From a virus (taxonomy: Duplodnaviria; Heunggongvirae; Uroviricota; Caudoviricetes), in the IMG/VR virus record IMGVR_UViG_2606217109_000004: a stretch of 37,894 bases of DNA. The stretch is one strand, 5' to 3'. The translations under genes were made by a program, and so were the position numbers. The notes under the pieces were generated by a model. The model searched no databases. It was not told the origin of the DNA and was given only the letters and a program-made list of their open reading frames with translations. Positions within the stretch are counted from its first letter, which is position 1, and each line of letters opens with the position of its first letter. Shown here piece after piece: positions 30,887 to 37,894 of this stretch.

Positions 30887-33800
30887 GTGAATATGGCAGT
30901 AAAGATTTCAGGTGTACTGAAAGACGGCACAGGAAAACCGGTACAGAACTGCACAATCCAGCTGAAAGCAAAACGTAACAGCACCACGGTGGTGGTGAAC
31001 ACGCTGGCCTCAGAAAATCCGGATGAAGCCGGGCGTTACAGCATGGACGTTGAGTACGGGCAGTACAGCGTTATTCTGTTGGTGGAGGGATTCCCGCCGT
31101 CACATGCCGGGACCATCACCGTGTATGAAGATTCCCGACCCGGTACGCTGAATGATTTTCTCGGTGCCATGACGGAGGATGATGCCCGTCCTGAGGCACT
31201 GCGCCGTTTTGAACTGATGGTGGAAGAGGTGGCGCGTAACGCGTCCGCGGTGGCACAGAACACGGCAGCCGCGAAGAAGTCAGCCAGCGATGCCGGCACA
31301 TCAGCCCGTGAGGCGGCAACCCATGCGACTGATGCTGCAGGCTCAGCAAGCGCAGCCAGCACGTCAGCCGGACAGGCCGCGTCGTCGGCTCAGTCAGCAT
31401 CTTCCAGCGCAGGAACGGCATCAACAAAGGCCAGTGAAGCATCGAAAAGTGCTGCTGCTGCAGAGTCCTCAAAAAGCGCGGCAGCTACCAGTGCCGCTGC
31501 GGCGAAAACGTCAGAAACGAATGCGGCAGCGTCACAACAATCAGCAGCCACTTCTGCATCCGCCGCGACCACGAAGGCGTCAGAAGCAGCCACCTCAGCC
31601 CGGGATGCGGCGGCCTCAAAAGAGGCAGCGAAATCATCAGAAACGAACGCATCCTCGAGCGCCAGTAGTGCCGCTTCCTCGGCAACGGCGGCAGGCAATT
31701 CCGCGAAGGCGGCAAAGACGTCTGAGACAAACGCCAGGTCTTCTGAAACGGCAGCGGAACAGAGTGCCTCAGCTGCGGCAGGCTCAAAAACAGCGGCTGC
31801 GTCGTCTGCCAGTGCAGCGTCAACAAGTGCCGGGCAGGCCTCAGCCAGTGCCACCGCCGCCGGAAAATCGGCAGAAAGCGCCGCATCGTCTGCTTCAACA
31901 GCCACAACGAAGGCTGGCGAAGCCACTGAACAGGCCAGCGCAGCAGCGAGGTCTGCTTCCGCAGCGAAGACATCCGAAACGAACGCGAAAGCGTCGGAAA
32001 CCAGCGCAGAATCCTCAAAAACGGCTGCCGCATCGTCAGCCAGTTCGGCGGCGTCATCGGCATCATCGGCGTCTGCTTCAAAAGATGAGGCGACCAGACA
32101 AGCGTCAGCAGCGAAGAGCAGCGCCACGACGGCATCCACGAAGGCGACAGAGGCTGCTGGCAGTGCGACGGCGGCAGCTCAGAGCAAAAGTACGGCGGAA
32201 TCCGCGGCAACGCGCGCCGAGACAGCAGCTAAACGGGCAGAGGATATTGCATCCGCCGTGGCGCTTGAGGATGCAAGTACGACGAAAAAGGGGATAGTAC
32301 AGCTCAGCAGTGCGACCAACAGTACGTCTGAAACGCTGGCGGCAACGCCAAAGGCAGTAAAATCAGCCTATGACAATGCAGAGAAACGTCTGCAGAAAGA
32401 CCAGAACGGCGCTGATATACCCGATAAGGGATGCTTCCTGAACAACATTAACGCGGTCAGTAAAACAGACTTTGCTGATAAGCGTGGTATGCGTTATGTG
32501 CGGGTTAACGCTCCTGCAGGTGCAACATCTGGAAAATATTACCCTGTTGTTGTTATGCGTTCTGCTGGCTCAGTAAGCGAACTGGCATCAAGAGTCATTA
32601 TCACCACGGCAACGCGAACCGCAGGCGATCCGATGAATAACTGCGAGTTTAACGGATTTGTTATGCCTGGTGGCTGGACTGACAGGGGGCGTTATGCTTA
32701 TGGAATGTTCTGGCAATATCAAAACAATGAACGAGCCATTCACTCAATAATGATGAGTAATAAGGGCGATGATTTGCGCTCTGTGTTCTATGTTGATGGC
32801 GCTGCTTTCCCTGTTTTTGCGTTTATTGAAGATGGCCTGTCAATATCCGCACCTGGTGCTGATCTCGTTGTTAATGATACGACCTATAAGTTTGGGGCAA
32901 CAAATCCGGCGACTGAATGTATCGCGGCGGACGTTATCCTTGATTTTAAGAGTGGGCGTGGTTTTTATGAGTCTCATTCGTTAATCGTTAACGATAACTT
33001 GTCGTGCAAAAAACTTTTTGCCACAGACGAAATTGTAGCGCGTGGTGGTAATCAGATTCGAATGATAGGTGGGGAGTATGGGGCATTATGGCGTAATGAT
33101 GGCGCTAAAACTTACCTGCTGCTTACCAATCAAGGTGATGCTTATGGTGGCTGGAATACATTAAGACCGTTTGCTATTGATAACGCAACCGGCGAACTGG
33201 TTATTGGAACCAAACTGTCCGCAAGTCTGAACGGTAATGCATTAACAGCAACAAAGCTGCAAACGCCAAGACGGGTTTCTGGTGTTGAGTTTGATGGTTC
33301 CAAAGATATTACTTTAACCGCCGCGCATGTGGCTGCTTTTGCCAGAAGGGCAACGGATACATATGCCGATGCGGATGGGGGCGTTCCCTGGAATGCCGAA
33401 TCAGGCGCTTATAAGGTCACCCGCTCTGGCGACAGCTATATTCTGGTTAACTTCTATACCGGAGTCGGAAGTTGCCGGACCTTGCAGATGAAGGCGCATT
33501 ACAGAAATGGTGGTCTGTTCTACCGTTCTTCAAGAGACGGTTATGGTTTTGAGGAAGACTGGGCAGAAGTTTATACCTCGAAAAATCTTCCACCAGAAAG
33601 CTACCCAGTCGGTGCACCAATCCCGTGGCCATCAGATACCGTTCCGTCTGGTTATGCCCTGATGCAGGGGCAGACTTTTGACAAATCTGCTTACCCGAAA
33701 CTTGCAGTTGCTTATCCGTCAGGCGTGATCCCTGATATGCGTGGCTGGACGATTAAGGGCAAACCTGCCAGTGGTCGGGCCGTATTGTCTCAGGAACAGG

Positions 33801-34291
33801 ACGGCATTAAATCGCATACCCACAGCGCCAGCGCATCCAGTACGGATTTGGGGACGAAAACCACATCGTCGTTTGATTACGGCACTAAATCCACGAATAA
33901 CACTGGTGCGCATACCCATAGTTTAAGTGGCAGCACGAATGCAGCTGGTAATCACAGCCATAGAGATGGCCGTCGATTTAACCCCAGTGTTTTTAAAGAT
34001 ACTTATCAATATGGTTATACAAGCTCAGGTCAAAATACCTGGGGTGTACAAGGCTCAGTAGGTATGTCTACGGGGTGGTTAGCTAATACCAGTACAGATG
34101 GTAATCATAGCCACTCACTGTCCGGCACAGCAGCATCTGCAGGTGCACACGCGCATACTGTCGGTATTGGTGCTCATACGCACTCCGTTGCGATTGGTTC
34201 ACATGGACACACCATCACCGTTAACGCTGCTGGTAACGCGGAAAACACCGTCAAAAACATCGCATTTAACTATATTGTGAGGCTTGCATAA
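30887..34291 (+). CDS. stf: Side tail fibre protein Stf, enlarged mosaic form
   Basis: N-terminus ([29 protein letters not shown]...) and C-terminal His-rich receptor-binding region match lambda Stf; central part is a long Ala/Ser/Thr-rich repeat tract plus a divergent lower-GC domain. Confidence 0.9.
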
Positions 34292-34872
34292 TGGCATTCA
34301 GAATGAGTGAACAACCACGGACCATAAAAATTTATAATCTGCTGGCCGGAACTAATGAATTTATTGGTGAAGGTGACGCATATATTCCGCCTCATACAGG
34401 TCTGCCAGCAAACAGTACCGATATTGCACCGCCAGATATTCCGGCTGGCTTTGTGGCTGTTTTCAACAGTGATGAGGCATCGTGGCATCTCGTTGAAGAT
34501 CATCGGGGAAAAACCGTCTATGACGTGGCTTCCGGCGACGCGTTATTTATTTCTGAACTTGGCTCGTTACCGGAAAATGTCACCTGGTTATCGCCGGAAG
34601 GGGAATATCAGAAGTGGAACGGCACAGCCTGGGTGAAGGATACGGAAGCAGAAAAACTGTTCCGGATCCGGGAGGCGGAAGAAACAAAAAACAACCTGAT
34701 GCAGGTAGCCAGTGAGCATATTGCGCCACTTCAGGATGCTGCAGATCTGGAAATCGCAACGGAGGAAGAAAACTCGTTGCTGGAATCCTGGAAAAAGTAT
34801 CGGGTGTTGCTGAACCGTGTTAATACAACAACTGCACCGGATATTGAATGGCCAGTAGCACCTATAGGGTAA
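34291..34872 (+). CDS. tfa: Tail fibre assembly protein Tfa
   Basis: 193-aa translation matches lambda Tfa ([37 protein letters not shown]...). Confidence 0.9.
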
Positions 34873-34965
34873 ATTCGTAATGATTACCTAAATACGTTAT
34901 TCTTTTGTTCAAAAAGTGATTTTGCTATAGGTAAGGAGTATGTTCTTGGATTAAGAATAAAAAAT

Positions 34966-34988
34966 CGCCATGAAAGAGCTTCATGGCG
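34966..34988 (-). terminator. Rho-independent terminator for a leftward transcript coming from the AT-rich spacer
   Basis: Perfect 9-bp stem CGCCATGAA / TTCATGGCG with 5-nt loop; on the minus strand it is followed by ATTTTTTATT. Confidence 0.5.
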
Positions 34989-35731
34989 AGTACATAAACG
35001 TACAAAATGTGATGAAAGTAGAGTGGCGTAAGCCACTATATTAAGATATGACAATAGCGAAGAAAAGTAAATAACATTTTATGGACGTTTAATTGTTAAT
35101 TATAAAAACTAGAGTGCCCGATATTGTTTATCTTGCTTTAAAATAATGTACTCAAACCAAATTTTTGAGCTAAAAGCTCAAATAATATAAATGCAATGAT
35201 AATGTTTAATAAGACAATTAGCTTGCTTTGTATTTTCATTTCGGAATACTGTTAAGTAACTTTGATGACCCTAACAATAGATCGGAATTTTCTTAGAGTC
35301 AATGGTCACTGTTTTTGCTTGCAAAGCAAATGTTTTGGTGGTTATAAGTTGTCTTAATATAGTCACGCATGCAACTTGTTCCATGCGGAGATTAAAGATT
35401 GGAATATAACGCGAAGATGGAATTAAATTACATTTGCAATAATCAATTTATTATTACTCAATAATTACCGATATTATTATTGTAAATTAATCATTAGAGT
35501 GCAAAAAGAAATGTAACGGCAAAATAAGAGGACGATAGCTGAGAAAAAAGCGTGCTTTCCCAATCTGGGGCAAATCACGTCTGAATGACACCTGAAAACA
35601 GGTGGTAGCCTCAAGAAGGCTTGGAATATTCTTCTTTAATGTTATGTAATTCATTGATTTTTCGTGTACGATTTTAAGACATTTATTCCAAGAAAAATTT
35701 TTAACTCTTTGATTTTTAGACTCTGTATCAT

Positions 35732-35793
35732 CGGTCTCGAAAACCGGAGTGGGGGCAACTCTACCGGGGGTTCAAATCCCCCTCTCTCCGCCA
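35732..35793 (+). other. 3' fragment (anticodon loop to CCA) of a tRNA-Ser(CGA) gene: candidate att core / prophage boundary
   Basis: CGGTCTCGAAAACCGGAGTGGGGGCAACTCTACCGGGGGTTCAAATCCCCCTCTCTCCGCCA equals the 3' ~62 nt of E. coli serU-type tRNA-Ser as I remember it (one mismatch); the 5' half of the tRNA is absent and replaced by AT-rich DNA. Confidence 0.75.
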
Positions 35794-36377
35794 CTTTATC
35801 AATGACTTATCTCCCGACTTCCCGCCTTGCTTTTCCTAAACAGAACAATCGTAGAATATTCTTGAAGGGTTAGATCGTCACTGTTTTCTGTTCGATACTG
35901 TGACATTCAGCACTTGATTCGCTATGGATCTGACAGGAAGGTTTTGAGCGAAAATTTGCAGTTATTCAGTCGTTTTCTTATCGGTCACCATTATTCTTTT
36001 AGACATTGATCCTACAAAGCTGCCGCAAAGTTGGTGGTGGGAACTGAAGTTGCGTAGAGAAGGGGTCAATACCCGGAGGCAAACATGGGCTGGCAAAAGT
36101 GTAGCGGTATTAGGCGCAGCTATTTAGCCTAGTTATGTTTTATGAAAACTTGATATCATATAAGTGTCTTACTTATTGGCTGTAAATAAGTTTTTCCTAA
36201 GGAATTGTTTCTTGAGTATCATTTGTAACTGTAACGGAATTTATAATCCTTTGCTTTATTGTTACGGTATTTTTTATCACACCCTATTTTTTATGTGGTT
36301 TTTTATACTGAAGTTTGGCAAAGTGAACTTTATATGCATATACTTCATCCTGGTTTCAGTTAAGTTGGGTGGATGAT

Positions 36378-37121
36378 ATGGCAACTACATGTTCAGTTAT
36401 ATTGATTTTGGAGTCCTTTGATGTTTATTTCGGAAAAGAGAGTGTGTTTCTGGAGAGAGGTTCATCTGTACTTGTCGACTCTAGCTCTAGAGATTTTTTC
36501 CTGACATATCCTGAAAGAGTGATAGTGGCGGATTTTGGCGCTGAGTTTATTAGTCGCTATTTGAAAGCTAATAACTTAAGGGATATTTCTGATTGTAGGG
36601 AATATCCATCTTATTTAAAAATAAACTTTGCTGACTTCAGTTTAATTAAAGGATTAATTAGTTGGGCTAATCACTGTGCTGAATACATAGAAATTTTTGA
36701 TGAGTCTATTGCTTTTACATGTCTCTCTGCATTTTCTTCTGAAAAACAATTTGGAGTATTTCTGTTTGAATGTTTGAAAAGCACAGGGGCTAAAGTTAAA
36801 ACGATTATTCATACGGATTTATCTGCACCATGGCGTCTTAAGGATATATCATCAAGATTATATCTCAGCGAAAGTTTACTAAAGAGGAAATTGAAAGAAG
36901 AGGGGGTATCATTCAGTAAGATCATACTTGATGAGAGGATGCAAATGGCTGAATATTTACTCAGCACTCGTTGTTATCCTATTAGTAAAGTAGCTAAGGT
37001 CTGTGGTTATGCCAGTGTCTCATACTTTACTTATGTATTTAGACGTTATTTTGGTGTTTCTCCAAGTCAATACTCTCAGAGCAGTTCAGAAAGTAAAATT
37101 CTTACTCACCAGGGAATCTGA
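36378..37121 (+). CDS. AraC/XylS-family transcriptional regulator (AppY/YdeO/GadX-like subgroup), AT-rich acquired gene
   Basis: 247-aa ORF with C-terminal double-HTH AraC signature (...SKVAKVCGYASVSYFTYVFRRYFGVSPSQY); GGTGGA ribosome-binding site before ATG at 36378; GC well below the phage genes. Confidence 0.8.
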   Translation: MATTCSVILILESFDVYFGKESVFLERGSSVLVDSSSRDFFLTYPERVIVADFGAEFISRYLKANNLRDISDCREYPSYLKINFADFSLIKGLISWANHCAEYIEIFDESIAFTCLSAFSSEKQFGVFLFECLKSTGAKVKTIIHTDLSAPWRLKDISSRLYLSESLLKRKLKEEGVSFSKIILDERMQMAEYLLSTRCYPISKVAKVCGYASVSYFTYVFRRYFGVSPSQYSQSSSESKILTHQGI

Positions 37122-37630
37122 TCATTGTTCTTGCCCCCTTATTTCCAGACAGGGGGTGTATCTTAAGTTAACGTTACCCGCTGACGTCGATATTCTCGCG
37201 GAGAGCGATAACCCAGCGCACTGTGCGGATGGTTTTCATTGTAATGTTCGATCGCCACTGCAAGATTATGCAATGCCGTTCTTACATTCGGTTTCGGCAT
37301 GAACGCGGTGTAGTCTTCCTTCATCGTTTTCACGAACCTTTCTGCCATTCCATTACTCTGAGGACTGCTGATTGCCGTTGTGCAGGGCTCCAGATTCAAC
37401 TCTCTGGCGAACTGCCATGTTTCATGCGCTCTATACGCTGAACCGTTATCTGTCAGCCACTGGATGGACTGTTCCGGTACTTTATCGCCAAAGCGTTTTT
37501 CTATCGCTCCTAACATGACATCCTGCACTGTCGCTTTATCGTAACCTCCCGTGCTTGCGGCCCAGTCTATGGCTTCACGATCGCAACAGTCCAGGGCGAA
37601 CGTAACACGCAGTTTTGAATCGCCACGGGT
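37122..37630 (-). mobile_element. IS3-family (IS2-like) element fragment: terminal inverted repeat plus 3' part of the orfB transposase; 5' part missing
   Basis: Minus-strand frame open from about 37630 to stop at 37163 encodes ...[38 protein letters not shown]...WLTDNGSAY...[11 protein letters not shown]...[19 protein letters not shown] (second D and E of the DDE triad); IS2-like end TTGCCCCCTTATTTCCAGACA at 37128-37150. Confidence 0.7.
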
Positions 37631-37678
37631 TTAACAGACACCTCAGAGTCATTTAAGATGGCTTAAAGAGAGGTGCCC

Positions 37679-37894
37679 ATGAGCGGTAAGCGTTATCCCG
37701 AAGAGTTTAAAACTGAAGCAGTCAAACAGGTTGTTGATCGCGGTTATTCTGTTGCCAGCGTTGCAACACGTCTCGATATCACCACCCACAGCCTTTATGC
37801 CTGGATAAAGAAGTACGGTCCGGATTACTCCACTTTTTCATCAAGCCAATCCGCCCACCACTGCATCATTTCTCTGCGCTTATCGAGATACTGA
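37679..37894 (+). CDS. IS3-family transposase OrfA (HTH protein), second IS copy, possibly frameshifted; cut by window end
   Basis: Translation MSGKRYPEEFKTEAVKQVVDRGYSVASVATRLDITTHSLYAWIKKYGPD... is a typical IS3-family OrfA N-terminus; RBS AGAGGTG upstream; C-terminal 20 aa atypical. Confidence 0.65.
   Translation: MSGKRYPEEFKTEAVKQVVDRGYSVASVATRLDITTHSLYAWIKKYGPDYSTFSSSQSAHHCIISLRLSRY

Follow-up and report, generated by a model that had tools for sequence, protein, structure and literature searches.

The DNA analysed here is a window of 37,894 nucleotides (one strand, 5' to 3') of a virus of the Caudoviricetes, recorded in IMG/VR as IMGVR_UViG_2606217109_000004, in which the genes J, lom and a side tail fibre gene (30887-34291) of a lambdoid phage are followed by tfa (34291-34872), and the subject of this analysis is the 859-bp region 34873-35731 that begins directly after the stop codon of tfa. 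The region holds a leftward cassette (34945-35450) with a 33-codon open reading frame (ORF) for a hydrophobic peptide that resembles the small membrane protein YncL of Escherichia coli, and to the right of it the phage arm of an attachment site (att) of the kind used by phages that integrate at the serU gene. With 30.7% G+C, compared with 52.8% in the window from 1 to 34872 and 47.9% in tfa, the region is indeed as AT-rich as a sequence-only reading had claimed, and it also holds true that there is no ORF of 60 codons or more inside it, the longest ones having 56 (34884..35054, minus strand) and 55 (35487..35654, minus strand) codons, but the description as non-coding has to be given up because of the conserved 33-codon ORF. 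The region is thus neither a single element nor wholly non-coding but a mosaic of cargo within the "b region" of a lambdoid phage with a lambda-type att site. We consider it probable, with some reserve, that the left two-thirds are a moron encoding a YncL-like peptide; the right quarter together with the neighbouring DNA is a fossil right attachment site (attR) of the serU type (Table 1).

Table 1. Features in and beside the region 34873-35731, from left to right in the coordinates of the window (UTR, untranslated region; HMM, hidden Markov model; dN/dS, ratio of non-synonymous to synonymous substitution rates)
Feature	Position	Strand	Remarks
3' flank of tfa, co-varies with the tfa allele	34873..34958		identity 96-100% if the tfa end is the same, 63-65% if it is different (L007, L009, L033)
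Intrinsic terminator of the predicted leftward unit	34959..34989	minus	stem 34965-34989, U-tract 34959-34964
End of the predicted 3'UTR, block 1, conserved and structured	34965..35041	minus	stem-loop, 18-nt single strand, weak 4-bp hairpin, terminator stem
Variable spacer of the predicted 3'UTR	35042..35137	minus	71-72% identity and three indels relative to the L007/L033 lineage
33-codon ORF, YncL-like putative small membrane peptide MKIQSKLIVLLNIIIAFILFELLAQKFGLSTLF	35138..35239 (ATG at 35239)	minus	HMM match, dN/dS, no indels
Sigma-70-like site TTGACT-17-TATTGT	35274..35302	minus	9/12 match; predicted start ~35266-35269
Upstream block 2	35345..35395		delimited by eye; core differs at few positions only
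AT-rich linker (25.6% G+C)	35451..35536		restricted to the lineage of this phage
Relic phage arm (P arm) of a serU-type att site	35537..35731		96-99% identity to DNA inside the right junction of serU-site prophages
att core, the 3' 62 nt of tRNA-Ser(CGA) serU	35732..35793	plus	one mismatch relative to K-12 serU
Captured host DNA, serU-yodB intergenic flank, 278 bp	35794..36071		97-99% identity to K-12 and strain XJ6.1

In IMG/VR, metagenomes and the E. coli genomes searched, the cassette exists in three sequence lineages only, which are the type of this window and of Qin-type prophages (~99% identity), a type found at the sit operon (94-97%), and a divergent type (63-89%, depending on the segment; L007, L033, L108, L119 and L135). 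When the peptide alleles of the three lineages were searched against NCBIfam, a single model was matched, NF000537 ("stress response membrane protein YncL"), with 25.0, 23.5 and 22.5 bits (E 1.3e-5 to 7.5e-5) over residues 1-28 and against a model of 30 positions, and nine shuffled versions together with the reversed sequence gave no match (0/10) even at E <=10. As all three scores lie under the curated cutoff of 35 bits, the peptide is to be classified, on the basis of this comparison, as YncL-like and not as an equivalog. YncL of E. coli K-12 (b4598) has 31 residues and the peptide has 33, both have a hydrophobic helix after a short polar N-terminus (GRAVY, the grand average of hydropathy, is 1.3 for YncL and 1.5 for the peptide), and the match runs nearly from end to end with ten invariant columns (M1, S5, L10, N12, A16, L19, F20, L22, F27, G28), so that the family trait of about 30 residues with one predicted hydrophobic helix and conserved positions is recognizable in the peptide. 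The genomic setting is different, as yncL lies on the chromosome between patD and ortT, whereas the ORF described here is phage-borne, always follows a phage tfa, has a predicted 3'UTR of ~180 nt and 31% G+C, and has no detectable similarity to yncL at the DNA level. Heat shock and growth in minimal medium induce YncL itself, an inner-membrane protein of 31 residues, and cells that produce it have a depolarised membrane and a condensed nucleoid (PMC12542507).

The ORF differs between this window and the divergent lineage (L007) at 19 nucleotides, which are distributed over codon positions 1, 2 and 3 as 7:1:11 and change five amino acids. By the Nei-Gojobori method these are 12 synonymous differences at 19.7 sites and 7 non-synonymous differences at 79.3 sites, giving a dS of 1.26, a dN of 0.094 and a dN/dS of 0.07, and the binomial probability of at least 12 synonymous changes among 19 is 5e-5. 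In all three lineages the ORF is intact with 33 codons and has no indel, while the non-coding DNA on both sides carries several, and polymorphism in the main lineage is lowest, among all parts of the cassette, in the ORF and the promoter/5'UTR segment (~3 per 100 nt versus 6-9 elsewhere). Judged by these substitution patterns, the ORF has been conserved under purifying selection. None of the other ORFs behaves in this way. The 56-codon ORF has gained stop codons in L007, the 55-codon ORF, which is annotated in phage ev099, sits in the lineage-specific linker and the relic-arm DNA, a 37-codon ORF (35271..35384) that is annotated in phage PhiR70_1 has lost its ATG or is frameshifted in other copies, and a 24-codon ORF on the plus strand (34971-35045, MKELHGEYINVQNVMKVEWRKPLY) within the conserved 3' block is probably not coding, with 4 of 5 between-lineage substitutions being non-synonymous; none of these four products has a match in Pfam, NCBIfam or PHROGs. 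A GTG-initiated ORF of 69 codons (35664..35873, plus strand) that crosses the right edge of the region is spurious, as it runs through the tRNA fragment.

The cassette has signals that would make it a transcription unit of its own. The sigma-70-like site TTGACT-17-TATTGT is the only promoter-like site that occurs at an equal offset in all three lineages (with TATCGT in L007), its -35 hexamer and the flanks of this hexamer are invariant and the spacer varies, and neither a further minus-strand site inside the cassette nor any plus-strand site is conserved across the three lineages. Upstream of it, the segment 35345-35440 that encloses block 2 still has 86% identity in the most divergent lineage, block 2 has no signal of RNA structure (z = -0.35 and -1.5), and the right edge of the cassette lies near 35440-35450. 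At the other end, the hairpin that had been described as a 9-bp stem at 34966-34988 was confirmed to within 1-2 nt, the actual perfect stem having 10 bp: the arms 34965-34974 and 34980-34989 are 100% complementary with 5 nt between them (11 pairs in the terminator scan when a G.U pair is counted), and UUUUUUAUUC comes directly after the stem in minus-strand direction (U6, the plus-strand A-run 34959-34964). Because there is no U-run after the stem on the plus strand, the hairpin is expected to terminate leftward transcription only. At this base composition ~0.019 perfect 10-bp inverted repeats with loops of 3-8 nt are expected by chance per 859 bp, and the 91-nt 3' segment folds with -27.1 kcal/mol (z = -6.8), with 0 of 200 shuffles being as stable. 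A generic terminator scan was not enriched overall (3 found versus 1.8 +/- 1.4 expected), and the non-random feature is this specific hairpin rather than terminator matches as a class. The stem is kept in all lineages, the sole change being from G.U to A-U, and the sit-type and L007-type lineages have an interrupted U-tract (UUUCUUAUU). A retroregulator of the sib/tI kind was rejected for this hairpin, as it travels with the cassette into contexts without a nearby att site. Promoter-like site, ORF and terminator thus stand in order and at positions kept in three lineages, which lends indirect support to the earlier suggestion of a leftward transcript that starts inside the region and is stopped before tfa; of the three contents that had been suggested for such a region, a small RNA, a short peptide gene or a phage arm of attP, the peptide gene is the best supported one, given the YncL-like HMM match and the dN/dS of ~0.07. 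An imperfect 25-nt inverted repeat (35022-35046 and 35352-35376, 76% complementary, with the cores CTATATTAAGA and TCTTAATATAG) brackets promoter and ORF, and was dismissed as an element of its own, since its left arm is not conserved in the divergent lineage and it may be a chance match.

The predicted 3'UTR ends in the conserved block 1, and it is this block from which another main product could be derived. Its stem-loop AGUGGC-UUAC-GCCACU (35022-35037, 6-bp stem) is followed by a U-rich single strand and the terminator, and in comparison to the lineage in which the ORF has a dS of ~1.26 only 3-4 of the 77 nucleotides differ, in spite of synonymous sites being saturated in the ORF beside it. 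Conservation and structure begin and end at the same positions, and the substitutions are confined to loops and single strands or preserve pairing (G-C to G.U, G.U to A-U). Such a pattern would fit a small regulatory RNA (sRNA) derived from a 3'UTR or an element of mRNA stability, and Hfq-dependent sRNAs derived from 3'UTRs, such as CpxQ, SroC and KilS, share with block 1 the conserved stem-loop, the U-rich single strand and the intrinsic terminator at the end of an mRNA. One could therefore read the last ~85 nt (35041-34959) as the main product, an sRNA of the Hfq type that is processed out of the 3'UTR or transcribed from a promoter of its own and addresses host or phage mRNAs, with the ORF being secondary or incidental. 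This candidate segment, however, has no match in Rfam: in a scan of 34200-36400 by E-value, no Rfam 15 family reached its gathering score within the region 34873-35731, the best ones there being MicC with 22.8 bits versus 90 (E = 2) and Aar with 19.6 versus 60 (E = 7.8), which share an sRNA-like architecture only, and the L007 lineage has not retained the 5' motif that resembles MicC. There is no internal promoter conserved across the lineages and the U-tract is interrupted in two of them, no complement of at least 10 nt to the single-stranded stretch exists elsewhere in the window, and the pairing of the block with the yncL mRNA of K-12 is no better than that of shuffled sequences. Within the main lineage, the polymorphism of block 1 is not reduced (7.2 per 100 nt versus 7.0-9.4 in the flanks), and as strain GF130 is a recombinant with a crossover inside the block, the conservation between lineages may reflect exchange among phages rather than constraint. 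Also the dN/dS of 0.07 for the ORF shows selection on the peptide itself. An RNA with a regulatory role may be made from block 1 but is unsupported, and that it would be the main product is unlikely. As a side observation, KilS is an sRNA from the 3'UTR of kilR of the Rac prophage that is reported, from RIL-seq (RNA interaction by ligation and sequencing), to pair with the host yncL mRNA, and this pairing is another link between prophages and YncL (PMC8175672).

The distribution of the cassette is that of a mobile addition. The block from 34873 to ~35450 is present in 831 of 5426 complete E. coli genomes (~15%) at 941 places, always directly 3' of a tfa gene or a tfa remnant, and its right-hand neighbours are ydfJ (the end of Qin-type prophages), the sitDCBA operon, or the linker of this phage, at whose left edge near 35450 the Qin-type and sit-type copies diverge, with the matches to serU-type prophages starting at 35537. 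The whole 859 bp are found at >=99% identity in 272 complete E. coli genomes and at 99% in three phage records (ev099, mEp332 and PhiR70_1), and partial matches in 1538 E. coli genomes fall into clean blocks. Four IMG/VR pattern scans (three with DNA, one with the peptide) returned essentially the same 48 viral contigs, the lists for the ORF and for the 3' block differing by one contig, so the two occur together; a metagenome scan gave the same three alleles and chance matches, two scans of species-representative genomes found no copy, and K-12 has none either. In Qin-type and Sx181-type prophages, the cassette lies between tfa and a second, C-terminal tfa fragment (L007 3587-3686; L004 right of 5579), and it looks there, from this arrangement, as if it had been inserted into, or recombined between, duplicated tfa ends. 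Insertions of the insertion sequence IS1 are found within or beside the region in several prophages (L006 4805-5501; H42, H61).

Morons have been defined by a deviant base composition, an own promoter and terminator, a patchy occurrence, and expression while the prophage is repressed (Juhala et al. 2000, as summarised in PMC3594210). The cassette deviates in composition (30.6% versus 52.8% G+C for the phage), has its own terminator with a 10-bp stem and U6, and is a patchy addition with at least three right-hand contexts; as its promoter, the site TTGACT-17-TATTGT is a candidate that is kept in three lineages, although such matches are not enriched over shuffled sequence. The closest precedent, by analogy, is gp15 of phage HK97, the first moron to be described, which is a diverged phage-borne YebO and blocks the DNA entry of superinfecting phages (PMC3594210). 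Like HK97 gene 15, the cassette is a self-contained and patchily distributed unit of deviant composition with a promoter-like site and a terminator among late or tail genes, and its product would be, as predicted here, a small protein of the inner membrane that has diverged from a small host protein; the differences are that one belongs to the YebO family and the other is YncL-like, and that gene 15 lies inside the tail operon and the cassette after tfa. Other morons of lambdoid phages are bor and lom of lambda and cor of phi80.

Several points weigh against a functional YncL-like peptide gene. Identity to YncL is just 35%, and none of the alleles comes near the 68.6 bits that K-12 YncL reaches with the NF000537 model. 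Promoter-like matches as a class are not enriched, with 7 found and 6.7 expected in shuffled sequence. The ATG lacks a Shine-Dalgarno sequence in every lineage, in contrast to K-12 yncL with its AAGGTGG, and this is the main weakness in the case for coding and expression. The selection tests rest on few substitutions, as only three lineages exist. Degenerate copies of the ORF occur (a frameshift in P0018, ATG changed to ATA in L113), and beyond the cluster of the ORF itself, phmmer against 1.84 billion representative proteins found nothing but a single frameshifted copy. The literature yields no transcript, protein or phenotype data for the cassette, and a model with the protein as the only product leaves the strong conservation of the 3' block between lineages unexplained. 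PHROGs and PADLOC have no match for the peptide, a tblastn search against phage records had none either, probably owing to the low-complexity filter, and the exact peptide is present only twice, and unnamed, among ~15 billion predicted proteins.

One might regard the cassette as decaying filler, that is, as horizontally acquired AT-rich DNA in which the small ORF and the hairpins are leftovers without present function. The missing Shine-Dalgarno sequence and the degenerate copies fit this view, as do the IS1 insertions and deletions in the region, the confinement of the family to E. coli phages, and the fact that RefSeq has nothing annotated at the cassette in any of the E. coli matches listed (1538 genomes match the region). 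Filler, however, would not be expected to keep an ORF free of indels and with a dN/dS of 0.07 next to non-coding DNA that carries several indels, nor to keep promoter hexamers and a terminator; the specific match to YncL has clean shuffle controls, and the cassette is retained in 831 genomes as well as in viable phages. This explanation is therefore quite improbable.

Even less probable is a type I toxin-antitoxin system, in which the peptide would be a membrane-depolarising toxin with its translation being checked by an antisense or divergent small RNA. It is true that the peptide is small, hydrophobic and apparently related to the membrane-depolarising YncL, that a weak translation start and a long structured UTR are predicted for the mRNA, and that prophages often carry such modules, for instance hokD in the neighbouring Qin-type prophage. 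But no plus-strand promoter-like site is conserved in the three lineages, the best direct repeat that could provide an antisense match in trans has 13/16 nt (sequence scans of this kind may miss unconventional antitoxins), and the 5' region does not pair with the 3'UTR any better than shuffles do (fraction 0.27). PADLOC has no match and the NCBIfam match is to YncL alone, which is not classed as a toxin with an antitoxin.

As we infer its transcription start, translation, membrane location and biological role, the moron with the YncL-like peptide would work as follows. The cassette would be transcribed leftward, against the late operon, into an mRNA with a predicted length of ~310 nt that starts at ~35267 and comprises the ORF and the ~180-nt 3'UTR, and the terminator would stop this transcript ~90 nt short of an antisense run into tfa. 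Like other morons, the cassette would probably be expressed in the repressed prophage, and antisense late transcription would be expected to override or silence it in lytic growth. The single-helix peptide would probably insert into the inner membrane, where it may act like YncL and lower the membrane potential, or like HK97 gp15 and keep out the DNA of incoming phages. In a more far-reaching version, the locus would have a dual function, with the YncL-like peptide protecting the lysogen by superinfection exclusion or by abortive infection via controlled depolarisation, and the near-invariant 85-nt 3' end giving rise to a trans-acting sRNA; we mention this as a speculation to which a low probability has to be given.

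The right part of the region has a different origin. The P arm (35537-35731) occurs independently of the cassette at the right junction of serU-integrated prophages, and from 35616 onward the stretch shared with phage SerU-LTIIb has 90-95% identity. It is followed by the 3' part of the serU tRNA, annotated in SerU-LTIIb as a pseudo tRNA-Ser (ARAGORN found no complete tRNA in the window), and by the downstream flank of host serU, the homology to which ends at 36071; as a whole, 35537-36071 has 98.7% identity to the serU junction of strain XJ6.1 with the host flank included. The consensus WATCAANNNNTTR for integration host factor (IHF) has four matches in the 37.9-kb window, where 1.19 are expected, and all four lie within 35441-35809: one at the boundary of cassette and linker (35441-35453), two on the minus strand in a direct repeat spaced by 55 bp in the P arm (35647-35659 and 35702-35714), and one in the host flank beyond the tRNA fragment (35797). 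A P arm with IHF-consensus sites, a 62-nt tRNA core and a host flank are what characterizes a lambda-type attR (P-O-B') such as that of SerU-LTIIb at serU, and by these homologies 35537-36071 is identified as a complete dead attR of a serU-type phage within this phage; the difference is that this site lies inside a phage with lambda attP and int and has no adjacent cognate integrase.

The site is internal and not at the end of the element. To the right of it, ev099 has an AraC-family regulator, IS2 remnants and, ~2.4 kb further, the canonical lambda core GCTTTTTTATACTAA beside int and xis, the annotation of PhiR70_1 has these AraC and IS2 genes as well, and the lambda attB locus, ybhB-bioA, is where a prophage copy ends; the core GCTTTTTTATACTAA itself is not in the window. 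The working attP of this phage is the lambda core next to int. In one prophage (L006), IS1 replaces 35622-36364 including the fossil attR, which fits its dispensability. That this phage uses the right part of the region as the phage arm of its own attP or attR, as the adjacent tRNA-Ser 3' fragment and the two IHF-consensus sites in the arm might suggest, is thus already largely refuted and extremely improbable, since the same DNA is internal in ev099, the tRNA fragment in the phage genome continues into host serU flank, and the prophage copy mentioned ends at another locus. The earlier proposal of a phage arm of attP with IHF sites was correct as to the nature of the right-hand 195 bp, but the site is not that of this phage. 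The fossil attR has no part in the phage's own integration and was probably acquired through imprecise excision or recombination between prophages.

Beyond the fossil site, the DNA at 36072-37121 has 34.8% G+C and contains as further cargo of the phage the AraC-family regulator (36369-37121, plus strand, 250 residues), which is most similar to YdeO (E 2e-43) and GadX (E 2e-31) but falls below both cutoffs, and IS2 remnants then follow at 37163-37894. To the left of the region, a match to Rfam IS009 (RF02111; 34634-34832, plus strand, 224.8 bits, E 2e-56) lies wholly within the coding sequence of tfa, and this family probably models conserved tfa coding DNA and not a separate RNA gene.

A moron together with a fossil attachment site is an ordinary kind of phage cargo region, and no prior description of this cassette was found in the literature. 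The fossil attR with its host flank inside a phage with a lambda att site is a clear record of how a cargo region is assembled by imprecise excision and recombination, and it is also a warning that a tRNA fragment need not mark the end of a prophage. As to the moron, none of the copies inspected has an annotation for this conserved small-protein gene, which is under purifying selection and is carried by >800 complete E. coli genomes and by several lambdoid phages in culture, and it would extend the precedent of HK97 gp15 and YebO, in which a phage has borrowed a small membrane protein of its host, to the YncL family, whose sole known activity is membrane depolarisation. As ev099, mEp332 and PhiR70_1 grow on laboratory strains, the gene is easily testable. 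Interest in it would rise if the peptide turned out to be an exclusion or depolarisation factor, or the 3' block an sRNA, and if the dual function were true, a previously unrecognised moron combining a peptide and an sRNA would be present in ~15% of E. coli.

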